DNA of 64,000 nt from an uncultured Geomonas sp. Its GTDB lineage: Bacteria; Desulfobacterota; Desulfuromonadia; Geobacterales; Geobacteraceae. Positions 5,963 through 24,292 of the stretch are shown piece by piece. The notes beneath the pieces were generated by a model, which had not been told where the DNA came from, ran no database searches, and worked only from the letters and a program-made list of their open reading frames with translations. Both the position numbers and the translations under genes were made by a program. The stretch is from assembly GCA_964519915.1 (NCBI GenBank), contig CAZFMI010000017.1, positions 1,415 through 65,414 on the forward strand, written 5' to 3'. Positions within the stretch are counted from its first letter, which is position 1, and each line of letters starts with the position of its first letter.

Positions 5963-6210
5963 GGCGAAAGAGTCACATCTAAAACGATGTTTAGAGAAAG
6001 CAACACTGGAGCGCGGGGCTGAGACTGAACATGCGGGTGCAGTGATCAAGCACGCCGCTTACAGGTAAAAGAGGCCCGGAAAAAAACCACCGATCATTCT
6101 AGAAGACGACGTTTCAGAAAGAGGCTGTTAAACAGTGCCTTGCGCATCATAGAGATGTGTTCAAGGTCGAGTCATGCCGTCACAGCGCAAGTCCAGCCTG
6201 CAAAGAGGGC

Positions 6211-6239
6211 TTGACATAGGGAAGTCCATCTGATATTTA
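6211..6239 (+). promoter_or_regulatory. Candidate sigma70 promoter of tRNA-Val
   Basis: TTGACA (6211-6216), a 17 nt spacer, then TATTTA (6234-6239). The tRNA starts 12 nt downstream. Confidence 0.5.
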
Positions 6240-6251
6240 TCCGGGACACAT

Positions 6252-6326
6252 GGGCGATTAGCTCAGCGGGAGAGCACTGCCTTCACACGGCAGGGGTCAC
6301 TGGTTCGAACCCAGTATCGCCCACCA
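6252..6326 (+). tRNA. tRNA-Val (anticodon CAC), copy 1, at the left island junction
   Basis: Cloverleaf read by hand. Acceptor GGGCGAT/ATCGCCC. D arm GCTC-AGCGGGA-GAGC. Anticodon arm CTGCC-TTCACAC-GGCAG. Variable loop GGGTC. T arm ACTGG-TTCGAAC-CCAGT. Discriminator A, and CCA is encoded. Confidence 0.95.
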
Positions 6327-6384
6327 TGCAAATCTTAAGCTGCAATTTCAGATAGTTAGCTAGTCTTAGTGCTTTTGCTCCTTC

Positions 6385-6399
6385 TTTTGCCACACAAAA
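6385..6399. repeat. TTTTGCCACACAAAA motif (left-end copy)
   Basis: This 15 bp imperfect palindrome lies just upstream of the integrase RBS. It recurs at 14587-14599 (partial) and 14600-14614 (exact). Confidence 0.8.
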
Positions 6400-6411: not shown

Positions 6412-7697
6412 ATGGCTAACTTTCTTCGTTTTAGGAGGCGGTATTACCACATCCGCCTAAGAATCCCCACCGATCTCCGCCCCACGTTCCCCGAACCTGA
6501 AATCCTTAAATCTCTTCACACAAAGGACCGAAAGACGGCCTCTATTTCGGCCTCTCGTCTTCATTCCAACATACTCGAAGTCTTCGCCCTGACACGCACA
6601 GGTTTTATTTCACCGGAGCAAGCAAGAAGCAAACTGGACTCTCTTCTCGGCCGAAAGGTGTCCGAGACACCTCCGCAACCAATGACTCTTCCGCCTCCAA
6701 AAGTTGAACCTCTCCCGGCACCGTCCCTAGCCGCGGTCATCACAGAGTACACCAAAGACCGCAAATCGGCGTGGACATCTAAAACCCTCCTTGAATATGG
6801 CAGTTATTTCCGGCTGATTCAGGACGTTGTCGGCAAAAAGACCGCCGCTGACATATCCCGCGATGATGTTAGACAGCTACGGGATACCCTAAGCAAACTT
6901 CCTGCAAACCTTTACAAGAAATACCCTGGCAAGACCATTGCCGACGTTCTCAACGTTGAAAACTTGATCCCCATGAGCACGACCACTGTTAACAAACTCC
7001 TTACCATCTTCGGAAGTCTAATGAGGCACTGCATCAAGGAAGGGTACCGGAAGGATAACCCTACCGAAGGACTAAGGGTCAAGCAACTGAGGAGAGCAGA
7101 GGAAGAAAGGCTTACAGTAGGTCGGACTTGAGCAGGTTGATCGCTGCCCTCCCGTCTCCAGCTACAAAGCCCGAAAGGTACTGGGTGCCGCTAATTGGCC
7201 TATATTCAGGGATGAGATTGGGAGAGATTTGCGGCCTTCATGTAGCGGATATCAAACAGGTCGATGGCATTTGGTGTTTTGATGTCAATGAAGACGGAGA
7301 AAAGCGCCTGAAGACTCTCGCCAGCACTCGGATTGTGCCACTACATCCTGAATTGATTCACAGAGGTTTGATAGAGGTGGTTGAATCAGCAAAATCCCTG
7401 GGAAACGAGAGGCTTTGGCCGAATCTTATCCGAAGAGAAATCGATGGTTATTGTCATGCCTTGGGGAACTGGTACGGACGTTTTAACCGGCTACACATAA
7501 CCCAAGACCCTCTTAAGAGCTTCCACAGCTTAAGGCATACCTTTGCCGATGGCCTAAAACAACTAGGCGAACAAGAGGTGATGATTGCCGAGCTTATGGG
7601 GCACTCAAACGCCTCAATCACAACAGGCCGCTACGGGAAACGTTATAAGCCTGAGGTTCTGTTAGAGGCATTAAGGAAGCTGTCGTTTGATCTGTAG
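6412..7697 (+). pseudogene. int: Tyrosine recombinase / phage-type integrase, split by a frameshift near 7105-7112
   Basis: ORF 6412..7131 is the N-terminal/SAM-like part. ORF 7128..7697 is the catalytic domain (GMRLGEICGL, HSLRHTFA, LMGHS...TTGRYGKRY). The second frame is already open from 7077 and reads ...KAYSRSDLSRLIAALP. A 1 nt indel in gaagaaagg would join the two parts. Confidence 0.85.
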
Positions 7698-7743
7698 GGT
7701 GTAAATCAGGCCTTTAAATCGCCCCTACAGCGGACAAAAAGCA

Positions 7744-7772
7744 AAAGGGGCATACTGAATATGCCCCTTTTC
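7744..7772. terminator. Bidirectional rho-independent terminator between the integrase gene and a convergent small gene
   Basis: Stem GGGGCATA / TATGCCCC with loop ctgaa. It is followed by TTTTCG on the + strand and by TTTTGCTTTTT on the - strand. Confidence 0.6.
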
Positions 7773-7794
7773 GCTACGGCTATGTTTTATGGAT

Positions 7795-7959
7795 TTAAGC
7801 AGCTTGTCTCCATACTTTCCTAGTTATTCCGCGCATCAACTCTAACTTGATTGGATCGCACCTCAGCGGGGTACAATCGATGCATTCAACTTGTTCCTCC
7901 CAAACAGGGGAAAAGATGCCTTTACACACCTTGCAATGCTTAATCTTTGGAAAAATCAT
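7795..7959 (-). CDS. 54 aa zinc-ribbon-like protein (below the ORF-track cutoff)
   Basis: Hand translation gives MIFPKIKHCKVCKGIFSPVWEEQVECIDCTPLRCDPIKLELMRGITRKVWRQAA, with CxxC...CxxC. A GGAGG overlaps the stop of the upstream gene, 8 nt before this ATG, and the terminator follows. Confidence 0.4.
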   Translation of the reverse strand: MIFPKIKHCKVCKGIFSPVWEEQVECIDCTPLRCDPIKLELMRGITRKVWRQAA

Positions 7960-7962
7960 ATC

Positions 7963-8298
7963 TTAGACCTCCAAAGCGACGAGGTCATTAAGATTGCCAT
8001 CTATCCCAAGCAGCTGATATGCCTCACTGAGGCGGATAATTCCCCTCTTTTCAAGCATCTCCTGGTTCTCTGCGAGCGTCATATAGCGAATTATGCTCTT
8101 TTCATCTTTATCTAACGTAGCACGAACCCAACGCTTAAACGACGCCATGCATCCATTAAATCTTTCATTCAATATTTGCAGTAGTTTGTGCCCAATCTCA
8201 CACTTTCGAGCTACATCGTTAAGGTCTTTGTTGATCTCGCGGGCTGCTAAATCCCAAGTACATTTAGTGGAGGTGTAAAACTGCTTCTGTTTTTTCAT
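7963..8298 (-). CDS. Hypothetical island protein (111 aa), DUF3102-like pattern
   Basis: Start at MKKQKQ with AGGAG upstream. IGHKLLQILNERF...FKRWVRATLDKDEKSIIRYMTLAENQEML...SEAYQLLG resembles my recollection of phage/plasmid DUF3102 proteins. This has not been aligned. Confidence 0.6.
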   Translation of the reverse strand: MKKQKQFYTSTKCTWDLAAREINKDLNDVARKCEIGHKLLQILNERFNGCMASFKRWVRATLDKDEKSIIRYMTLAENQEMLEKRGIIRLSEAYQLLGIDGNLNDLVALEV

Positions 8299-8544
8299 AC
8301 TCGAACTCCTATATAATAAGATTGAGAGCAATTTATTTTTGCTTTCACATTATTATATACAGAGGAGCCGAATATTTTATTACTCTATTTCAGAATTTTT
8401 TTCAGAAATATTCACATAATCAATAAAATCCTTAACCATCTTAGTTATGGAAGAACCCGAGGGGTCCCCCCTCGCACTGATTTTTATATTTACTATACCT
8501 ATACCTGATAACGTCAAAAGAAAGATTACAATACCACTAAGTCT

Positions 8545-10008
8545 TTATAGGTCCATATTCTTACTTAGTTGTAACCATTCCGTATACCTTTTATGGTATT
8601 CACCAGATTCATGTATCCACTCTTCTTCATACTCCTCCTCAGATTGGGGAACATCTTCAGAGTTAATCTCACTCCTCAGAGTCTGAATATCAAGCTCATA
8701 AGCAGTTAGATCTGCTTTACAGCCTATTGTTGTACCAATTTGGGTATTTACCTCCGAAGCCATAACCTCTAGCAAATCTTTCTTGTACTTACGTTGCACA
8801 ATAAAACTGTCATGTATCCCAAGTGCTACTATACCTCGTCGGCCCAAGGAAAGCATGATTCCTTCGGCTATTTTTGAATCAATATACTGAAGCTTAATAC
8901 CGAATCCTGATAAAATATATTTATTGATAGCACAATGTTTATTTTTGAAAGCTAATATTACCGATTCAACAGAAACATTAGCGAATAAGTCTTTGTAACC
9001 TTTTTCCATAATCATACTATTGGCAGCTTTAACAGCTGAATTCATATCTTTAGTATTTAACAAGATGTTGAAAATCCGCTTTAGAGGCTTTCTGGCGTTA
9101 TCTGGTAAGTCACACACACTGTAAACGTCATCCACAGGAACGGGTAAACCTTCAAGTATATACAGAATATTTGCGTGATATCCCGTAAAATCTATTTCAA
9201 TTGTGGTTTCGTTGTCGATGGTTATGTAGGGCCTGTACCTACTAGGGACAGATTGCCACCAGCCGTTGTAAAATCTCCCTCCATCAGCGAATGACGAGTT
9301 ATTGAAAATTCGCTTCATCTTTATCCTGCTATAGTCAATAACCTCAGGGTGGTTCTCGTGGTCTAGTCGCTGTTTTATTCTTGCCCTTTCATTGAATTCT
9401 TTGATTTCTTTATCTGAGATGCGTAACCCAAGGAAATGCTGTTGATATAGAAAGTTTATAAATTTTAGATTTTGGCGCATTTCAGTTGTCGTAGCAGTTT
9501 CAGCGTAGTCTATCAATTTCTTTTCAGCATCCTTTAGGATTATTACCTCTTCATCCTCTGCCCTTTCGATAAAAATAGGAGAGAATTCAAAACGTTCTTC
9601 TAAAAGCGTAATTAGTTTATTGGTTGCTCTGAGTCTAGCATCTCTAAAATGTTTCTGTTTTTTAAAACTGAACCCTTTCACACCTTCAACATAGGCTAGC
9701 TTTTTAAGTGCATCTATAATTTTTATAGTTGAATCGAACTTAATATCGACAGCGTTATACCTTTTTATCAGATTATAACGATTACGATTCCTTGAATAGG
9801 AAGTGTATAGAAGTGGGTTGACACGGAAATTTCTATATATATTAACGATGATTAGCAGCAAGTGCTCGTTATGACGTTCATGCCACCTCTGAAATTCACA
9901 GCTGTCTTTTATCTCTCTGGCTATGTACGCTATGGCATCGTAAAAACGTGCGGTGCAAGCTGAAACATTTGTATCAAGCGGGATAGAATAGTCATAATTT
10001 CGGGGCAT
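8545..10008 (-). CDS. 487 aa island protein with family-A polymerase / T7-RNAP-like palm motifs
   Basis: ADGGRFYNGWWQSVPSR (243-257) compares with TGRLSSxxPNLQNIPxR. EIDFTGYHANILY (D273) compares with DYSQIELRIMA. RKPLKRIFNILLN (R306, K310) compares with RRSAKAINFGLIY. GIHDSFIV (H399, D400) compares with VHDE / IHDSFG. The gene is AT-rich. Confidence 0.75.
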   Translation of the reverse strand: MPRNYDYSIPLDTNVSACTARFYDAIAYIAREIKDSCEFQRWHERHNEHLLLIIVNIYRNFRVNPLLYTSYSRNRNRYNLIKRYNAVDIKFDSTIKIIDALKKLAYVEGVKGFSFKKQKHFRDARLRATNKLITLLEERFEFSPIFIERAEDEEVIILKDAEKKLIDYAETATTTEMRQNLKFINFLYQQHFLGLRISDKEIKEFNERARIKQRLDHENHPEVIDYSRIKMKRIFNNSSFADGGRFYNGWWQSVPSRYRPYITIDNETTIEIDFTGYHANILYILEGLPVPVDDVYSVCDLPDNARKPLKRIFNILLNTKDMNSAVKAANSMIMEKGYKDLFANVSVESVILAFKNKHCAINKYILSGFGIKLQYIDSKIAEGIMLSLGRRGIVALGIHDSFIVQRKYKKDLLEVMASEVNTQIGTTIGCKADLTAYELDIQTLRSEINSEDVPQSEEEYEEEWIHESGEYHKRYTEWLQLSKNMDL

Positions 10009-10159
10009 GTGCGTGTCCTTGTGAAAGCGGAAAATTTACAGGAACATTTTCAGAAGAAGTGAATGTGGGAGAGCTTGAGGTGGGGCTGCTGCGGCGTGTG
10101 GCCGCCCTTTATTAGATGGGCGCCGCCACCTCCTGTAACGGATATACAACTAACTTCTC

Positions 10160-10177
10160 ACTTCCGATATCGGAAGT
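10160..10177. promoter_or_regulatory. 18 bp perfect palindrome ACTTCCGATATCGGAAGT (candidate protein-binding site)
   Basis: Read directly, about 150 bp upstream of the 487 aa gene. Related TTCC..GGAA inverted repeats occur at 10333-10345 and 10349-10368. Confidence 0.4.
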
Positions 10178-10456
10178 TGCGCCCATACGGAATTACCCTT
10201 GACGCTGGCCCAGCATGCGTAATATTGCAGCACCTCTTAGGAGGTATGCTTTTTCGGACAAGTCGGAATGATTAGCAACACCTAGACGATCTTGTATTTA
10301 CTTTGGACATGCCCGTAAAAAATCTGCAAGGCATTCCATCGGAATTTGTTCCGAGGGGTGTCTCGGAAGGTTCAAAAATTGAAAAACAGCCTATATCTGG
10401 CCTAAGCAGGGCAAAATACTAGCAATAATTTTGTTCTTAACATGACACCTCCCCCT

Positions 10457-11029
10457 CTAAGCCGTCCTTAGATACTGGTAAAGGGTTTCCCTGCTTATCC
10501 CCATATCGCGTGCTATGCTGGCCTTTTTCTCGCCTGCGGCGACTCTTGCCTTGATCGTCGCAACATGGTCTTCGGTGACGCTACGTTTCCTACCCTCGTA
10601 CTTCCCCTTGGCCTTAGCTATAGCAATCCCTTCCTTCTGGCGCTCTCTAAGCAATGCCCTTTCGAATTCGGCGAAGCTACCCATGATACTCAAAAGGAGA
10701 TTTGCCATTGGGCTGTCATCACCTGTAAAGGTGAGTCCTTCCTTTAAAAATTGAATTTTTATGCCTCTGCCAGTCAAGTCCTTTACGATTCGGCGGAGAT
10801 CGTCAAGGTTACGCGCTAACCGATCCATGGAATGGACGACGGTAGTATCACCTTGCCTCACGAATTTCAGCATGGCCTCTAGTTGAGGGCGTTTAGCATC
10901 CTTCCCGCTGCACTTGTCTGCAAATACCTTGTCTAGCTCAAGCCCCTCTAACTGCCTATCCGTTTTCTGATCTATTGAGCTAACGCGAACATAGCCAACG
11001 AGTTGCCCCTTCATGCTACCCTCCTCCAA
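10457..11029 (-). CDS. Serine recombinase (resolvase/invertase family)
   Basis: LVGYVRVSSIDQKTDRQ (catalytic Ser), VVHSMDRLARN, LRERQKEGIAIAKAKGKYEGRKR and the C-terminal HTH ASIARDMGISRETLYQYL. Confidence 0.9.
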   Translation of the reverse strand: MEEGSMKGQLVGYVRVSSIDQKTDRQLEGLELDKVFADKCSGKDAKRPQLEAMLKFVRQGDTTVVHSMDRLARNLDDLRRIVKDLTGRGIKIQFLKEGLTFTGDDSPMANLLLSIMGSFAEFERALLRERQKEGIAIAKAKGKYEGRKRSVTEDHVATIKARVAAGEKKASIARDMGISRETLYQYLRTA

Positions 11030-11277
11030 ACAGAAATAGTGTCAGCTTAGGTTCTATAACATATCGTTGGTGTTGTCAACTAACAACTGAATCAACCCTA
11101 TTCTGACACAGTCGGGTAAACTAGCTGACGTCAGGCTGGGGTATACCCTACCCCGACAAAAAAAAACAAGGCAAATAAAAGGGTTGCAGAGTTAGGAAAA
11201 ATATTTTAAAAACACTCAAGCTTCCTGTCGCCACACACTATCAAATCAGCAGCAGATGTAATTCTCTTGAGGGAACC

Positions 11278-12087
11278 ATGGCGATTACAGATGTTGAGTT
11301 TATGAAAACAAAGGACGGAAAGGTGGCTCTGTGTATAATCCATGACCTTTCCGACGAACTAAAACTGTTGATTCGAAAGGATTTGTCAACGGTTTGCCAC
11401 GGGGCCGCGAAAGTGGCTTCAGGCAACAAAATATATTCCTACAAATCGACCTTAAAAGCCTTCTTATCGCGCTACGAAACAAAAACCGAAAAAACTAAAA
11501 CGGGTATGATTGGTGAGCTTTTGTGTCACATCACTCTATATCATTTTTACACAAATCTTAAGCCTGCCTCTCCTTTTTTCAATATGGAGGAAGGAAGTAT
11601 AAAGAAAGGTTTTGACCTCATTGCTATAGAAAAAGGTGGCAAAGGCTTTTACTTTACTGAAGTAAAATCTGGTAAAGTTGGTAAGCTTGACAAAGATAAA
11701 AAAATTCATGCTCTCATAGATTTAGCCAAGACGGATCTTGAAGACAGAATTCCGAACAGTGATTCGACATTATGGTACTCAGCGATTAACAATGTCGAGT
11801 TATCCCTTGAGTCAGGTAAACCTGAAAAAACTATCCTCATAAACTGTCTCAGCGAATTTTTTGAAGCTGCGGAATCTGGAACGGATAAAACGGGTGATGC
11901 TCGTGTAATACTGGTTCCTGTTTTGTTTGAATCTACCACCAACACTCTCGACCTTAGCACTCTGATTTCAAAGAGCAGTAACATACAGAGTAATAAGACC
12001 TTTTGTGATTGCATCGTCTTTGCAATTCAGAAATCTACCTTAGAAAAAGTTGAAGAGTTTTTAAAGATAGAGTCCACACTGCCATGA
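11278..12087 (+). CDS. hamA: PD-(D/E)xK-like nuclease-fold protein, HamA (DUF1837)-type candidate
   Basis: 269 aa. E80 (GMIGELL), D113 (GFDLIAIE) and E128-x-K130 (YFTEVKSGK) each follow a hydrophobic strand. The stop overlaps the ATG of the downstream helicase (ATGA). Confidence 0.7.
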   Translation: MAITDVEFMKTKDGKVALCIIHDLSDELKLLIRKDLSTVCHGAAKVASGNKIYSYKSTLKAFLSRYETKTEKTKTGMIGELLCHITLYHFYTNLKPASPFFNMEEGSIKKGFDLIAIEKGGKGFYFTEVKSGKVGKLDKDKKIHALIDLAKTDLEDRIPNSDSTLWYSAINNVELSLESGKPEKTILINCLSEFFEAAESGTDKTGDARVILVPVLFESTTNTLDLSTLISKSSNIQSNKTFCDCIVFAIQKSTLEKVEEFLKIESTLP

Positions 12088-14528
12088 AAACACCACTTAC
12101 ATTAAAAACAATTAGAGCGACTAACATTGATGCGATTATTCAACATCTGAATCTTAAAGATTTGAATAGCGGGCAATGTATAGCTATATTGAAGATATGC
12201 TTGTTATTCTTAAACAGCAACAACGATGAAATAAAGGAATTTGGCTATCGTATTTTACTAAAGCTTTGCAATAAAACCCGCAATTACATACCTCTTTATG
12301 ATGTTGCAACAAACCTAGGTTACATTCCTATAGCCAACATGTTGAAACGAGGGCAGTACATAGCCGTAACTGATTCTTTTATACACACTTTAATGGATGG
12401 TTACCGAGAAAGATTTAGACAGGATGACAATTATCAAACTGAAAATCAAAAAGAACTTTTCGACTCATTTTCAGATTTATCTGAGCAAACAGTTGCGGTG
12501 GTAGCCCCTACATCTTATGGCAAATCACAATTAATAGAATTCACCGTTCAAAGCCATCCTAGTAGCAATATAGGTATCGTAGTTCCATCTAAAGCACTGA
12601 TTTCTCAAACAAGAAGAAGGGTTTTAGAGGGATTGCCGCTTGAAAAGAGACGACAGGTTATTGTTCACCATGATATGAACTTTAGCCAAGACAAGCCTAT
12701 TGTCGCGATAGTAACCCAAGAACGTCTTTTGAGGATGTTTCAAAAATATCCTTCCTTACAATTTGATATATTATTTATAGATGAGGCTCACAACCTTTTA
12801 AGTGGTGACAAGCGCTCTAGGCTTTTGGCAAGTGCGATAATTATTGCTAAATCTAGATGCAAAAGTATTGCGATCAAATATCTTACTCCCTTTTTAGTTA
12901 CTTCAGATAGCCTAAATATAATCGCAGACACGCCCAATATCAAAGAAATCAAAATAAACGAAAAGCTAAAAACCGAAGATTACTACATTTGCGATTTCTC
13001 TTCTGGTTGCCAACTGCGATTCTATGATCAATTTTTGAATAAATTCTTCGACATTCCCGAAGCCGTGTATAGCGACGATACACAGCTTTTATTCGACAAG
13101 AAAAAGCAAAAGAATGTTGTTTATCTTAACAAACCCAAGGACATAGAGGAATTTGCACAGGTTCTCTGTGAAAAGCTCCCTACCCGAAACTCCAAAAAAA
13201 TCGAGAAACTTTGCGAGGAAATCGCTGATTATGTGCACCCGAGCTACAGAATACTTGATTGTTTGAGAAAAGGGCTCGCATATCATCATGGATCAATTCC
13301 AGATAGCGTTAGAACCTATATTGAAAATGCTTTTAGACATAATCCTTCGATATCGTGGATAGTTACTAGCTCCACATTGCTCGAAGGCGTTAATATACCT
13401 GCCGATGTCTTATTTATTCTAGACCCTCGGCGTGGCCCAAGAAATTTAAAACCCTCTGAGTTCAGAAACTTAGTTGGCAGAATAAATAGGTTCAGCGAGA
13501 TATTCGATCCAGAAAATGGTGTTCCACAACTTTTAATACCCGATATCTATCTTATTTCTTCAAATTACACTAGATCAAAAGCTAACATTGAAAAATTTAT
13601 CCAACATGTTGCAAAAATTGATTTGACGATTGAAGATGAGATAGAAAACCCCCTTTTAGCAGGTTCAGGGGATTCTGAAGACACATTATCTGAACGTGAT
13701 GAGGATTTAACCTTCATAGAAAATATAGAGCCTAACGCGAGCTGGCGCGAAGAGGCAAAGCTTGCAAACAGCGAGGTAGGAAGGCTATGTTTTATTCATA
13801 ATATTTATGAGCTAGACATTTTGAGGTATGAACGTCTATTAGCTATCCAAGTTGACGAATTAATTGAAGAAAATAGAATTGTAAAATCTTCAACAGACCT
13901 AATGGATATTATAAATGAGTTATTTATCTCAAAAATAGATGATGACAGGAAAAATGAAAATCTTCTCCGCCTTCGCAACAGCTCGGCTCGTGGCTTTTAT
14001 TCAATGTTTTTCGATTGGAGAATTAACCAAGTCAATTATCAACGGATGATTGGGAGTTTTGTTCGTTACTGGAAGGCCATTCTAAAAAATGAAGATGATG
14101 CCCTAGTTTATGCGGGAAGGTGGGGGAATGTTGCAAGAAGTGGTCACATAGCTAATTATATTGATCTAAAAGCTTTATCAGAATATGAGATGATAAACTT
14201 GGCAATAGTTAGAATAAAAGAGGAACAAGATTTTGTGGACAATAACCTTGTTAAGTTCGTTGAAGTAGTCAATGACTTGAATCTTTTAGATCATGATATC
14301 TACAATAAGGTTAAATATGGCACTACCGACAAATTACAAATTGGATTAATAAGAAGTGGTCTATCACACATAGCAGCCAATGTACTTGCGTCAAAATATA
14401 TTAAATATGTTACGCTGGATTCTAACGGCTCCATTCTTATTTCAAATGATATCAAACAGGCCTTCAGGCTGAAAAACGAAAAGGAGCTTATCAGCAGTGA
14501 GGTTCTATGGTCAGGTTTACTCGGATAA
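12084..14528 (+). CDS. hamB: DEAH-box SF2 helicase, HamB-type candidate
   Basis: 814 aa. Walker A VVAPTSYGKSQ, DEAH in LFIDEAHNL, GLAYHHGSIP, TSSTLLEGVNIPA and VGRINR (Ski2/Hel308-like motifs). The C-terminal region is long and uncharacterised. Confidence 0.8.
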   Translation: MKTPLTLKTIRATNIDAIIQHLNLKDLNSGQCIAILKICLLFLNSNNDEIKEFGYRILLKLCNKTRNYIPLYDVATNLGYIPIANMLKRGQYIAVTDSFIHTLMDGYRERFRQDDNYQTENQKELFDSFSDLSEQTVAVVAPTSYGKSQLIEFTVQSHPSSNIGIVVPSKALISQTRRRVLEGLPLEKRRQVIVHHDMNFSQDKPIVAIVTQERLLRMFQKYPSLQFDILFIDEAHNLLSGDKRSRLLASAIIIAKSRCKSIAIKYLTPFLVTSDSLNIIADTPNIKEIKINEKLKTEDYYICDFSSGCQLRFYDQFLNKFFDIPEAVYSDDTQLLFDKKKQKNVVYLNKPKDIEEFAQVLCEKLPTRNSKKIEKLCEEIADYVHPSYRILDCLRKGLAYHHGSIPDSVRTYIENAFRHNPSISWIVTSSTLLEGVNIPADVLFILDPRRGPRNLKPSEFRNLVGRINRFSEIFDPENGVPQLLIPDIYLISSNYTRSKANIEKFIQHVAKIDLTIEDEIENPLLAGSGDSEDTLSERDEDLTFIENIEPNASWREEAKLANSEVGRLCFIHNIYELDILRYERLLAIQVDELIEENRIVKSSTDLMDIINELFISKIDDDRKNENLLRLRNSSARGFYSMFFDWRINQVNYQRMIGSFVRYWKAILKNEDDALVYAGRWGNVARSGHIANYIDLKALSEYEMINLAIVRIKEEQDFVDNNLVKFVEVVNDLNLLDHDIYNKVKYGTTDKLQIGLIRSGLSHIAANVLASKYIKYVTLDSNGSILISNDIKQAFRLKNEKELISSEVLWSGLLG

Positions 14529-14586: not shown

Positions 14587-14614
14587 TTTTTGCCACACAT
14601 TTTGCCACACAAAA
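14587..14614. repeat. Tandem TTTTGCCACACA(AAA) motifs at the right island end
   Basis: tttttgccacaca followed by ttttgccacacaaaa. The second is identical to the motif at 6385-6399. Confidence 0.8.
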
Positions 14615-14672
14615 CTTAGGCAGAAGTTCGGAGCACAATCAAGCCTTCCAAGATTAAACTACTGATTTTGCT

Positions 14673-14747
14673 GGGCGATTAGCTCAGCGGGAGAGCACTG
14701 CCTTCACACGGCAGGGGTCACTGGTTCGAACCCAGTATCGCCCACCA
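14673..14747 (+). tRNA. tRNA-Val (anticodon CAC), copy 2, at the right island junction
   Basis: 75/75 nt identical to 6252-6326. It has no recognisable native promoter upstream, but the native-looking terminator follows it. Confidence 0.95.
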
Positions 14748-14757
14748 TGCAAACAGC

Positions 14758-15741: not shown

Positions 15742-16368
15742 TCAGAACTTCAGCCTGAGCCCCACCGTCGCGTTGTGGCTCTCAAACTCCATCTCGGTGT
15801 CGGCAAAAGTGGCTTCGGAGGTTCGGAAGTAGCGATATCCGAGATCCAGCGACACCTGCCGGTTCAATGCGACCTCGAGTCCGGCTCCGGCCTGATAGGC
15901 GAACACCATTTCGTCGTCGGCGACATAGAAGGTCCCGAAATCGTCGTAGATCTCGCTCTGGTGCAGTGCGGCAAAACCTACCCCCCCGCCGAAGTAGGGG
16001 GTGATGGGACCTGGGCTGTGCAGGTCCACGAAGAGGTTGACCATGAACGCGGTTGCCTCCAGCCCGCCTTCTATCCCCCGAAACGTCTGCCCGGTGCCCC
16101 TGTCGGTTATGGTGTCCACGTCCGCCTCTTTGTACGAGATCTCGCCTTCGACGCGCACTGCACCGAAATCCATGCCCGCGGTGCCGCCGACGTTGAGGCC
16201 CGGATCGAACTCGATCTCCTCGTTGAAGAAGCCTGCATCAGCATCTGCAGGTATGGTCATCCCGATGAATCCTGATACATACGGCCCGACACGCGGCGGC
16301 GCCGCAGAAGAAATGGCGGGGACCGCCATAACTACGAGTACGAATATTGCCAGAATCAGCTTTTTCAT
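15742..16368 (-). CDS. Outer-membrane beta-barrel protein (OmpA-like/porin family)
   Basis: Signal peptide MKKLILAIFVLVVMAVPAISSA, alternating beta-strand pattern, and C-terminal ...VGLRLKF. Confidence 0.85.
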   Translation of the reverse strand: MKKLILAIFVLVVMAVPAISSAAPPRVGPYVSGFIGMTIPADADAGFFNEEIEFDPGLNVGGTAGMDFGAVRVEGEISYKEADVDTITDRGTGQTFRGIEGGLEATAFMVNLFVDLHSPGPITPYFGGGVGFAALHQSEIYDDFGTFYVADDEMVFAYQAGAGLEVALNRQVSLDLGYRYFRTSEATFADTEMEFESHNATVGLRLKF

Positions 16369-21537: not shown

Positions 21538-23160
21538 TCAGGCGTGGTGGGTCTTCGAGAGGTAGTAGTCGTAGTTCCCCTCGTAAAGGCGCATCTCGCC
21601 GTGGTCCACCTCGATGACCCGGTCCACCAGCAGGCGCAGGAAGTGCCGGTCGTGGCTCACCAGGATGACGGTCCCCGCGAAGTTGTCCAGCGCGTTCAAA
21701 AGGATCTCGCGCGAGCGGATATCCAGGTGGTTGGTCGGCTCGTCAAGGACCAGGAAGTTCACCGGCCGCGCCAGGAGCGTCGCCAGCACCACCCTGCTCT
21801 TCTCGCCGCCGGAGAGGTTTTCTATCCTCTTGTCCACGTCGTCCCCCTGGAACAGGAAGGAGCCCAGCAGGTTGCGGATCACGCCGATGGTGGCAAGCGG
21901 TATCACGTCCTGCACCGTCTCGAAGATGGTCTTCTTGGGATCGAGGACCTCCATGGCGTGCTGGCTGAAGTAGCCGAGCTCGACGTTCGCCCCGAGTGCC
22001 ACGCTCCCCTCGCTCGGCTCGGTCTCCCCGGCAATGACCTTCAGGAAGGTCGATTTGCCCGCGCCGTTCACACCGACCACGGCGATCTTGCTGAGTCTTT
22101 TCACCACCCCGGTCACGCCGGAGAAGATCGGCTGCATCCCGCCGTCGGGCTGCTGCCAGCTCTTTCCGAGGTTGTTCATGGCCACCACGTCGTCGCCGCT
22201 TCTGGGGGGGGCGGCGAATTCGAAGCGGACCACCCTCTCCTCGGGGGGGATCTCGATCCGGTCGATCTTCTCGATCTTCTTCACCCTGGACTGCACCTGC
22301 GCCGCGTGCGAGGCGCGGGCGGCGAAACGGGAGATGAATTCCTCCTCCTTGGCGAGCATCTCCTGCTGGCGCTTGTGGCTTGCGAGCAGCTGCTCGCGGC
22401 GGATGTCGCGCTCCCTCTCGTAGAAGTCGTAGTTGCCGCCGTAGGTGGTCACCGTCTTGTTGGCCACCTCGATGATCCTGCTCACCACCCGGTTCATGAA
22501 ATCACGGTCGTGGCTGGTCATCAGGAGCGCACCCTTGTACTCGTTGGCAAGCCACTCCTCGAGCCAGATGATCGATTCGACGTCCAGGTGGTTGGTCGGC
22601 TCGTCAAGAAGGAGCACGTCCGGCTGCAGGGTGAGTATGCCGGCAAGCGCCACGCGCATGCGCCATCCGCCGGAGAAGGACTCCACCGGATTGTGGAAGC
22701 GGTCGGGGCCGACCCCGAGACCGGTCAGCACCTCCTGGGCACGGGAGTCGAGATCGTACCCTCCCCTGTGCTCGAATTCCTCCATGGCTGCCCCGTAGCG
22801 TGCCAGGAGCGCCTCCATGTCGCCGTCCGACATGGGGAGCCCCATCTGCTCCTCCATCTGCTTCAGTTCACCGGAGAGCCGCACCGTTTCCGCCGAGACC
22901 GCCATCACCTCGTCCAGCGCGGACCGCCCGCACATGTCCCCGATGTCCTGCGAGAAGTAGCCGATGGTGGTCTTCTTGGCGACGGTCATCTCGCCGGCAT
23001 CGACCTCTTCCTCACCGGTGATGATCCTGAAGAGCGAGGTCTTGCCGGCGCCGTTGGGGCCGACCAGGCCGGTCCTGGTACCGGAGAGTATCTGGAAGCT
23101 CGCGTCGCGGAACAGCACCTGCGAGCCGTGCTGCTTGGTGATATTGGACAGATGGATCAT
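21538..23160 (-). CDS. ABC-F family ATPase (two ABC domains, no transmembrane domain)
   Basis: Two Walker A sites (GPNGAGKTS, GVNGAGKST), two LSGG signatures (FSGGWRMR, LSGGEKSR) and an inter-domain linker. Confidence 0.9.
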   Translation of the reverse strand: MIHLSNITKQHGSQVLFRDASFQILSGTRTGLVGPNGAGKTSLFRIITGEEEVDAGEMTVAKKTTIGYFSQDIGDMCGRSALDEVMAVSAETVRLSGELKQMEEQMGLPMSDGDMEALLARYGAAMEEFEHRGGYDLDSRAQEVLTGLGVGPDRFHNPVESFSGGWRMRVALAGILTLQPDVLLLDEPTNHLDVESIIWLEEWLANEYKGALLMTSHDRDFMNRVVSRIIEVANKTVTTYGGNYDFYERERDIRREQLLASHKRQQEMLAKEEEFISRFAARASHAAQVQSRVKKIEKIDRIEIPPEERVVRFEFAAPPRSGDDVVAMNNLGKSWQQPDGGMQPIFSGVTGVVKRLSKIAVVGVNGAGKSTFLKVIAGETEPSEGSVALGANVELGYFSQHAMEVLDPKKTIFETVQDVIPLATIGVIRNLLGSFLFQGDDVDKRIENLSGGEKSRVVLATLLARPVNFLVLDEPTNHLDIRSREILLNALDNFAGTVILVSHDRHFLRLLVDRVIEVDHGEMRLYEGNYDYYLSKTHHA

Positions 23161-23517
23161 GCATTCTCCCTGGGCTGAATTCGCAACTGTCCAGCGTTAG
23201 CATGAAGAGGCTCTAGTGACAACTTAAATTTTCCAAAGGATGCCGGGATTTGACTGGCGCGAGCCTAGGAGAAGCTAATTAGGCGAGACTACTGCGCTAT
23301 AACGCGTACTTGACCGCGCCAAAAGTGTCCAAATGGCGCACCGGGAGTCCCCCCCCTCCACCGAGGGTGACCGCTGCGAAACGATCCCGTCTGCCGGGTA
23401 AGGTGCCGTAATCACTTCGATCCATCGGTTAATTAGAGATAATGTGGTCAGGCTGGCATTTGGGCCCCCTTTGTGCTAATCACAGGGTATCCAGCGGCAA
23501 GGAAAAAGGAGGGAACG

Positions 23518-23895
23518 ATGAACATTTTCACCGCGCTGATGATAACCGTCACCTTGACCATGACTGCAGTCATGGTCCCCAGGATCTACCTTTCCTGGCT
23601 CATGGCGGAGGAGCATCGCCTTGAGGGAGAGGTCGAGGCATTGCAGAACCTTCTTGCCGAGCAGAACCGGTGGGTAGGGCGACAGTTTTTTTGCGGGAGT
23701 GCTGCCTTCGCCCTGGTCTGGATGGTGAAGACGTCCCGGCACGACCTGGACATACCCGCCTCGATGGCGGCGGCCCTGGCGGCCTACGCGGTCATATCCA
23801 TGTTCTTCGCGGTCCTGGAGGGGCTGGTGGCACAGAAGGTCTCGTCGTCACTGGACAGTGTGCCGGTTGTGGTGAAGGTGAGGGAAGAAAACTGA
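23518..23895 (+). CDS. Hypothetical membrane protein
   Basis: Start at MNIFTALMITV with GGAGGG upstream. Several hydrophobic segments. Confidence 0.6.
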   Translation: MNIFTALMITVTLTMTAVMVPRIYLSWLMAEEHRLEGEVEALQNLLAEQNRWVGRQFFCGSAAFALVWMVKTSRHDLDIPASMAAALAAYAVISMFFAVLEGLVAQKVSSSLDSVPVVVKVREEN

Positions 23896-23915
23896 GGTTG
23901 GTCTCGCGGCCTCCG

Positions 23916-24149
23916 CTAGCGCCGCTTCTGGAAGAATTCCACTACGCGCCGCAGCAGGTTGGCGGCATAAATCGAAACGAACATGATGAGGGCGATGTTG
24001 ACGAAACGGGCCCAGATGGGGTCCGGCACCGGGGCCTGCCTTCCTGCATTGCTGTAGAGGTACCAACCGCAAAGCAGTGCGCCCATGATGCCCCCCCCGA
24101 TAACGAAGGGGCGCCTGAGCTTCGAGATCTCTTTTCGCTGTGGTTGCAA
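23916..24149 (-). CDS. Small two-TM membrane protein downstream of yggS
   Basis: Proposed TTG start at 24149 with AGGAG 6 nt upstream. TM segments PFVIGGGIMGALLCGWYLY and FVNIALIMFVSIYAANLL. The track ORF extends to 24269. Confidence 0.4.
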   Translation of the reverse strand: MQPQRKEISKLRRPFVIGGGIMGALLCGWYLYSNAGRQAPVPDPIWARFVNIALIMFVSIYAANLLRRVVEFFQKRR

Positions 24150-24158
24150 GTGACGCTC

Positions 24159-24190
24159 CTGGTGGAACTGGTGGAACTGGTGGAACTGGT
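24159..24190. repeat. 9 bp tandem repeat (CTGGTGGAA x3 plus a partial copy)
   Basis: Read directly. It lies immediately 5' of the proposed start of the small membrane gene, or would encode QFHQFHQFHQ if the long ORF is real. Confidence 0.9.
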
Positions 24191-24292
24191 AGACAATGGT
24201 TCGGTGGACGTGGTGGGCCCGAATGGGACCCGATGGACCTGCCACTTCGGCTGGCCCTCCTCCTGACAAGGGAAAGGGGATGCTTTCCTCTG

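Follow-up and report, generated by a model that had tools for sequence, protein, structure and literature searches.

A predicted minimal family-A polymerase of the TV-Pol family encoded beside a serine recombinase in a genomic island of an uncultured Geomonas

A 64,000-nucleotide stretch of the genome of an uncultured Geomonas sp. (contig CAZFMI010000017.1 of assembly GCA_964519915.1, positions 1,415 to 65,414; hereafter, the window) contains a genomic island at a tRNA-Val gene. The island carries a tyrosine integrase, a Hachiman defense system and a predicted minus-strand operon that encodes, in order, a serine recombinase, a 487-amino acid polymerase-like protein and a small protein of 111 amino acids (Table 1). 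The polymerase gene is the subject of this study. An initial annotation, made from the DNA letters alone, had placed a 487-residue open reading frame (ORF) at positions 8545-10008, beside a recombinase and within a defense-carrying island. The ORF is present, and the serine recombinase gene precedes it in the same operon; the coding strand, missing from that annotation, is the minus strand, and the plus-strand translation of the interval contains many stop codons. The gene belongs to a recombinase-linked operon within an integrative element and encodes an intact family-A active site on which purifying selection is strong. On balance, we think it probable that its product is an active, minimal family-A nucleotidyl transferase belonging to the subgroup of the Transposon-Virus polymerases (TV-Pols) that has an additional N-terminal domain (N-domain) and is encoded beside site-specific recombinases.

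Four motif strings had been compared by eye with those of family-A polymerases, and all of them occur in the translation with the residue numbering assigned to them. SFADGGRFYNGWWQSVPSRYR corresponds to residues 239-259, IEIDFTGYHANILY to residues 270-283 (including D273, codon 9190-9192), ARKPLKRIFNILLN to residues 305-318 (including R306 and K310), and LGIHDSFIV to residues 396-404 (including H399-D400, with the D400 codon at 8809-8811). The strings cited for comparison also agree with the reference sequences, namely TATGRLSSTDPNLQNIPVR, SADYSQIELR, QRRSAKAINFGLIYG and QVHDE in Escherichia coli DNA polymerase I (Pol I; NC_000913), and DWRGRVY, FDGSCSGIQH, TRSVTKRSVMTLAYG and LIHDSFG in T7 RNA polymerase (RNAP; NC_001604). 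Library scans detected no exonuclease or other Pfam/NCBIfam domain in the protein, in line with the reported lack of an exonuclease region.

Searches of Pfam, NCBIfam, PADLOC and the sequences of the PDB gave no informative match, either for the single protein or for a profile of 41 homologs collected by a word-indexed search, and none of these 41 members matches Pfam DNA_pol_A (PF00476) at E<=1 or RNA_pol. One strong library match was obtained, to phrog_4756, an uncharacterized phage family (E=1e-52). An exhaustive profile search over 1.84 billion representatives, with matches counted as clusters at 50% identity, returned 12,708 matches at E<=1e-3, of which 6,205 reach E<=1e-30; almost all are 420-520 amino acids long and match from end to end. 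The homologs come mostly from Pseudomonadota and Desulfobacterota. Another large search of proteins, run with an alignment of 150 sequences, recovered essentially the same 40 proteins and no named member from Brucella, Geobacter or Staphylococcus. Homologs were also detected by tblastn in 36 phage genomes. The phage homologs are full-length proteins, all annotated as hypothetical, in large genomes (110-145 kb) of Vibrio, Aeromonas, Pseudoalteromonas and Shewanella phages, such as Aeromonas phage 2L372X and Vibrio phage 11895-B1, and several of these genomes have two matching places each; a related BFVD entry from Rheinheimera phage Barba31A is annotated as a DNA polymerase.

The initial annotation had staked its polymerase call on the conservation of D273 and D400 and on the presence of a right-hand polymerase fold. 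Over 185 diverse homologs, D273 and D400 are both present in every sequence, as are K310 and R259, followed by R245, H399 and G244 (184 of 185 each), R306 (182/185) and D294 (178/185). Asn at position 318 occurs in 174 and His at position 278 in 169 of the 185, the Glu of Pol I never being found at the latter, steric-gate position. The columns without variation among the 41 aligned sequences are N185, G244, R245, I264, D273, Y283, D294, R306, K310, H399 and D400; N185, in the thumb, is nearly invariant over the 185 homologs. All the residues nominated as catalytic by the initial annotation are thus those under the strongest constraint within the family.

An AlphaFold2 model built from the 41-sequence alignment (mean pLDDT 92.9, pTM 0.91) has the right-hand fold of family-A polymerases. 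A Foldseek search of the PDB with this model gave 86 matches at E<=1e-3 (best E=1.3e-5, probability 1.0), the best 50 of which are all family-A DNA polymerases; the matches include Bst, Taq/KlenTaq, Klenow, the apicoplast polymerase, Mycobacterium smegmatis Pol1 and phage G20c Pol I. Global TM-scores against the family-A polymerases of the PDB are low (0.25-0.32), as would be expected of a query that is much smaller and differs at its N-terminus. Among predicted viral structures, the best matches are full-length uncharacterized proteins of Aeromonas and Vibrio phages (E~1e-23, TM-score <=0.77), and annotated phage family-A polymerases rank next.

The relationship to Pol I emerged at the profile level only with a profile of 14 sequences (12 diverse phage Pol A sequences, E. 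coli Pol I residues 470-928 and T7 gp5), after comparisons with single sequences had failed. The 185-sequence family alignment matches this profile by hhalign with E=1e-5 and 82% probability over 361 aligned columns of the whole protein, and with E=2.2e-6 and 89% probability when only the core (residues 225-435) is used, against E=0.72 and 0.5 for the reversed Pol A profile. The alignment equates D273 with D705 of motif A, H278 with the steric-gate E710, R306 and K310 with R754 and K758 of motif B, N318 with Y766, and H399-D400 with H881-D882 of motif C, in agreement with each of the motif assignments made by eye, including the replacement of the steric-gate Glu by His and of the motif-B Tyr by Asn. 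It further equates D294 with D732, N314 with F762, Q374 with Q849, S401 with E883, Q252, P255 and R257 with Q677, P680 and R682, and R259 with R690. GGR245 probably pairs with TGR668, the two being offset in the alignment by the placement of gaps.

The resemblance to family-A polymerases, as judged by residue conservation, Foldseek and the hhalign scores relative to the control, exceeds chance. Profile-profile alignment, structural modeling and the collection of homologs therefore all support the polymerase call. The protein shares the right-hand fold and active-site geometry of Klenow, Bst, Taq and T7 gp5, and retains the equivalents of D705, D882, R754, K758, D732, Q849 and H881. In contrast to Pol I, it has approximately half the mass of the polymerase domain and neither a 3'-5' nor a 5'-3' exonuclease domain, and E710 is replaced by His, F762 and Y766 by Asn, and E883 by Ser. 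With N314 and N318 in place of F762 and Y766 and no PF00476 match among the 41 members scanned, the protein does not qualify as a canonical DNA_pol_A polymerase.

TV-Pols were defined by Iyer, Abhiman and Aravind (Biol Direct 2008, 3:39; PMC2579912) as proteins of 400-600 amino acids that contain a minimal family-A core and no nuclease domain. This core consists of a thumb made of two helices, a beta-hairpin in which one Arg is absolutely conserved, an RRM palm that has a pair of conserved Asp residues, and an insert forming the fingers, where a conserved Asp and RxxxK are found (PMC2579912). A subgroup with an extra N-terminal domain adjoins genes for gamma-delta resolvases, lambda-type integrases or transposases in mobile-element hot spots; it is exemplified by a three-gene Brucella element (TV-Pol, resolvase and Bro-N/KilA-C protein) and includes a member from Geobacter bemidjiensis (PMC2579912). 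The present protein was filed as a TV-Pol, an identity absent from the initial annotation, because it displays seven defining features. It has 487 amino acids (homologs mostly 420-520); in the model, the two antiparallel thumb helices (172-190 and 199-216) lie immediately before the hairpin and palm; hairpin strands 232-235 and 243-247 carry R245; the palm has D273 and D400, aligned to D705 and D882; helix 303-318 of the fingers bears R306xxxK310, accompanied by D294; homology to family A is given by the hhalign (E=1e-5) and Foldseek (E=1.3e-5) results; and an N-domain of approximately 170 amino acids is conserved family-wide, with both a resolvase and an integrase in the island. The likeness to the N-domain subgroup extends to the linkage with resolvases, lambda-type integrases and Bro-N proteins in mobile islands and to the same clades, including the G. 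bemidjiensis group. The polymerase is a member of this already described family and not a new kind of system.

Two observations concern more distant comparisons. The sole Pfam match of the polymerase is sub-threshold (winged-helix POLR3C_WHD, E=0.035, residues 310-351) and falls within the fingers, which fits the 2008 claim that the family-A fingers core is derived from a helix-turn-helix domain. Microcystis phage Ma-LMM01 gp030, a hypothetical protein of 506 amino acids (22746-24266, minus strand) encoded beside two transposase genes, probably corresponds to the TV-Pol that the 2008 paper lists for Ma-LMM01, and it is very divergent from the N-domain subgroup. It has no HMMER match to the present family and falls in a separate, singleton PHROG; hhalign places it in register with the family profile (GxRxY..D..H..K) without statistical support (E=0.039).

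The N-terminal 230 residues had been described as unrecognizable. This holds for approximately 170 of them, and residues 172-216 form the two-helix thumb. The sub-model of the N-domain has no significant match in the PDB (Foldseek best E=0.05), while its sub-threshold matches are consistently winged-helix proteins, namely ArsR, MarR, PadR, TFE-alpha and eS10. These model-based matches hint at a resemblance of the N-domain to a winged helix, and they fit, without establishing, a model in which the N-domain binds the template. The N-terminal domain of TV-Pols was predicted to be all-helical in the 2008 paper, in contrast to the alpha/beta architecture of the present model.

Regarding the island, the description of the polymerase gene as lying in a mobile segment proved correct, since the island is real and precisely bounded by its base composition, by a repeat and by an empty site in a relative. 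The polymerase gene is located in a segment of 37-50% GC, in a surrounding genome of 60-68% GC. The island is flanked by a perfect 82-nucleotide direct repeat, the copies of which lie 8,421 nucleotides apart and each contain an identical tRNA-Val(CAC) gene. Citrifermentans (Geobacter) bemidjiense is closely related to the host; the genome of strain Bem of that species has a single tRNA-Val, with continuous synteny on both sides and no island. As the site in Bem is empty and synteny is continuous, the island is a clean insertion at tRNA-Val. No match to the island was found in E. coli genomes.

Table 1. Features of the island and of the polymerase gene (positions in the window)
Feature	Position	Strand	Basis or remark
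attL, left copy of the 82-nucleotide repeat, with whole tRNA-Val(CAC) 6252-6326 and flanking bases	6251..6332	+	ARAGORN; 100% identity
Tyrosine (lambda-type) integrase, DUF6538 N-terminus	6412..7697	+	Pfam DUF6538, Phage_int_M/SAM_5, Phage_integrase
Terminator-like hairpin, 13-bp stem and T-run, closing the minus-strand operon	7743..7771	-	Located where the integrase gene and the small ORF converge
Small ORF, 111 aa from Met12 of the 122-aa ORF 7963-8331	7963..8298	-	Directly follows the polymerase gene
TV-Pol-family minimal family-A polymerase, 487 aa	8545..10008	-	Stop codon 8545-8547
Polymerase catalytic core, aa 230-435	8704..9321	-	Conservation in 185 sequences; hhalign against Pol I profile
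Parts of the core: R245 beta-hairpin; motif A D273; fingers D294, R306, K310, N318; Q374; motif C H399-D400			
Polymerase thumb, formed by a pair of long antiparallel helices (aa 172-190, aa 199-216)	9361..9495	-	DSSP on model; conservation
Polymerase N-terminal domain, aa 1-170, alpha/beta	9499..10008	-	AlphaFold2 sub-model, pLDDT 86
Serine recombinase (resolvase/invertase and HTH_7), first gene of the minus-strand operon	10457..11029	-	Pfam Resolvase 2e-36, HTH_7
Sigma-70-like promoter match upstream of the resolvase gene	11203..11231	-	Consensus match only
Hachiman cargo: HamA 11278-12087, HamB helicase 12084-14528	11278..14528	+	Pfam HamA; PADLOC HamB 2e-78
attR, right copy of the repeat, with tRNA-Val(CAC) 14673-14747	14672..14753	+	ARAGORN; repeat

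The integrase gene is frameshifted into overlapping ORFs (6412-7131 and 7128-7697, with a TTGA overlap), and the intact 420-residue integrase of Geomonas terrae matches two different frames here; the frameshift represents either a pseudogene or a sequencing error. The serine recombinase has a 'DNA invertase' family as its best PHROG match (1e-60). The small ORF has no Pfam match and a marginal PHROG match only. The Hachiman system is complete, its HamA also having a weak DUF1837 match. Two adjacent perfect palindromes, CTGACGTCAG (11125-11134) and GGGTATACCC (11139-11148), lie approximately 100 nucleotides upstream of the resolvase start and might serve as an operator or as a site for a recombinase; 16-mers related to them are located at 6876-6891 and 7630-7645. 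A further motif, TTTTGCCACACA, has a single copy at the inner side of attL, upstream of the integrase gene (6384-6396), and two tandem copies at the inner side of attR (14587-14611), and its copies are candidate arm-type recombinase binding sites.

The closest comparison is offered by G. terrae, the polymerase of which is 78% identical and is followed by an ORF 87% identical to the small ORF. The block of resolvase, polymerase and small ORF (7712-11148) has approximately 80% DNA identity to the G. terrae block (8964-12288), and the palindromes at 11125-11148 mark the edge of the conserved block and are both kept in G. terrae. The G. terrae integrase has only 27-43% amino acid identity to the island integrase, the block is inverted relative to it, and the locus is without a tRNA. 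The cargo slot is variable, since Hachiman here is replaced in G. terrae by a HATPase_c protein and a protein with HD-CE and receiver domains. Movement or inversion of the three genes as one unit is conceivable, but a search for terminal repeats at the flanks of the 3.4-kb resolvase-polymerase block found none in either genome.

Neighborhoods were counted over 83 related genomic loci. A tyrosine integrase is present in 52-58 of them and a serine resolvase in 23-24, with at least one of the two in 63. Bro-N proteins recur in a few loci, and clustering of the neighbors revealed no recurring helicase, SSB-like protein (SSB, a protein that binds single-stranded DNA) or other partner. A tRNA or tmRNA gene, often abutting the integrase gene, lies within 8 kb in 41 of the 60 loci counted for this feature. 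In a Roseibium locus, two tRNA-Arg(CCG) genes (6143-6219 and 15801-15874) flank the polymerase gene 9.6 kb apart, which is the same architecture as the tRNA-Val arrangement here. A compact order of tRNA-Cys, integrase and polymerase (around 11040-11150) is common to six loci from Rhodobacterales. The downstream small ORF is shared by only one of the 83 loci, and it was rejected as a general partner of the MP/SSB kind.

The functional model for the family is CcPol of the SCCmec elements, a distant member without the N-domain and the only experimentally characterized TV-Pol. CcPol-MP is a primase-polymerase (Bebel et al., eLife 2020, PMC7581432; Rice, Front Mol Biosci 2023, PMC10061031). CcPol extends DNA and RNA primers with deoxyribonucleoside triphosphates (dNTPs) and, in complex with MP, a small ssDNA-binding protein, synthesizes DNA de novo in dependence on two Asp residues; the complex is a weak polymerase that makes short products and prefers dNTPs (PMC7581432). 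CcPol and the present protein are alike in being truncated family-A polymerases with two catalytic Asp residues and no proofreading, encoded on recombinase-bearing genomic islands. They differ in that CcPol has the OB-fold SSB subunit MP as a separate protein and an adjacent Cch2/D5-type helicase gene, neither of which recurs here: clustering of the neighbors yielded no conserved small partner and no helicase cluster, and the sole helicase of the island is HamB of Hachiman. In addition, CcPol originates from Bacillota, in contrast to the mostly Pseudomonadota and Desulfobacterota members here.

By analogy with CcPol-MP and from the genomic context, the most likely role of the polymerase would be that of a primase-polymerase for the excised element. 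The suggestion in the initial annotation of a minimal replicase for an excised form of the island is accordingly in keeping with the literature, which proposes a replicase or primase role for this family. Excision or recombination would yield a circular or otherwise free copy of the element, on which the polymerase would bind the template DNA and start a strand de novo. The N-domain may hold the template, as the separate MP/SSB subunit does for CcPol, and supply help in initiation. Short extension would then provide a primer or a limited stretch of synthesis to be completed by the host replisome, and the element would thereby need no helicase or primase of its own.

Several points weigh against the assignment and this role. 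At the HMMER level, neither Pol I nor T7 RNAP nor any Pfam model is linked to the family by sequence searches, and hhalign of the family profile gives probabilities <1% when the target is one sequence only, be it E. coli Pol I, T7 DNA polymerase or T7 RNAP (0.2% for the last). The comparison with named TV-Pols reached, with its best candidate gp030, only the E-value given above. CcPol needs an OB-fold partner and adjoins a helicase, neither of which recurs here, so that primase activity would be an extrapolation from it. No N-domain TV-Pol is known to have been assayed, and a full-text search of the literature returned, among its titles, no later biochemical study of the family. Finally, no iteron-like origin was found in the island, and if the frameshift is real, the present copy may have lost the ability to excise through its integrase.

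As for the product of the reaction, the sequence leaves open whether it would be DNA or RNA, since the steric-gate Glu is replaced by His and the helix-O Phe/Tyr by Asn. CcPol keeps the steric-gate Glu and the F762-equivalent Phe, which exclude ribonucleoside triphosphates (rNTPs) (PMC7581432), in contrast to His278 and Asn314 here. Because His278, Asn314, Asn318 and Ser401 replace Glu, Phe, Tyr766 and Glu883, the sugar choice of CcPol is not transferable to the present protein. A tentative extension of the primase-polymerase role, to which we give a modest chance, is that N-domain TV-Pols are self-sufficient, single-polypeptide primases, in which the fused N-domain would replace the SSB and the His/Asn positions would allow a start with ribonucleotides.

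Alternatively, the enzyme could be a complete replicative DNA polymerase that copies the whole 3-8 kb element together with the serine recombinase, that is, by replicative transposition, which was the original proposal for resolvase-linked TV-Pols (Iyer et al., PMC2579912). The G. terrae comparison, in which the three-gene block is kept and inverted while integrase and cargo differ, suggests mobility as a unit, and CcPol is able to extend primers. On the other side, the block lacks flanking terminal repeats in both genomes, the neighborhood contains no processivity factor, helicase or SSB, and a full replicase is not easily reconciled with the weak, short-product synthesis of CcPol-MP or with the lack of an exonuclease domain here. 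We therefore regard full replication of the element by this enzyme as unlikely.

Still less likely is a single-subunit RNA polymerase that acts as an RNA primase or as a transcriptase for the element genes. Such an activity would suit the IHDSF of motif C, which is identical to residues 810-814 of T7 RNAP, the GGRFY of the hairpin, which resembles T7 RGRVY through a shared G-R-x-Y, the His at the steric gate, and the Ser at the E883 position, which is also Ser in T7 RNAP; an ancestral primase, that is, RNA polymerase, activity was proposed by Iyer et al. (PMC2579912). However, T7-type RNAPs are absent from the best 50 of the 86 structural matches, the Tyr that selects rNTPs in T7 RNAP (Y639, equivalent to Y766) is Asn here and in most homologs, and there is no Pfam RNA_pol match. 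Neither an N-terminal promoter-binding domain nor a specificity loop is present, no promoter-recognition elements are evident, and the only characterized relative prefers dNTPs.

It is very improbable that the polymerase is part of, or accessory to, the defense cargo, for instance by making a signal or decoy nucleic acid for Hachiman: it sits in a defense-carrying island 1.3 kb from hamA, but in a separate operon with the recombinase on the opposite strand and without a PADLOC match, the closest relative carries other cargo, and HamA and HamB occur in none of the 83 related loci, on which ground membership in Hachiman was rejected. The initial annotation was right about the defense genes of the island, and their link with the polymerase is incidental.

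Since the TV-Pol family was defined computationally in 2008, recognizing this member does not amount to a discovery. With 12,708 clusters the family is very large, yet it has no Pfam or NCBIfam model, and its named homologs and phage matches are nearly all termed 'hypothetical' or 'uncharacterized', with the exception of one UniRef name that refers to a family-A polymerase palm domain and one viral match named DNA polymerase. These polymerases are a recurrent core gene beside the integrase in small islands that integrate at tRNA or tmRNA genes and carry variable defense cargo. The persistence and spread of such islands would be easier to explain if the part played by these enzymes on the excised island, priming or replication, were known. 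As the smallest natural family-A polymerase core, with nucleotide-sugar determinants that differ from those of Pol I, CcPol and T7 RNAP, the enzyme has altered sugar-selectivity positions of enzymological and biotechnological interest. If N-domain TV-Pols were indeed self-sufficient, RNA-initiating primases, they would add to DnaG and AEP a third structural class among RNA primases, used by thousands of tRNA-integrating islands.

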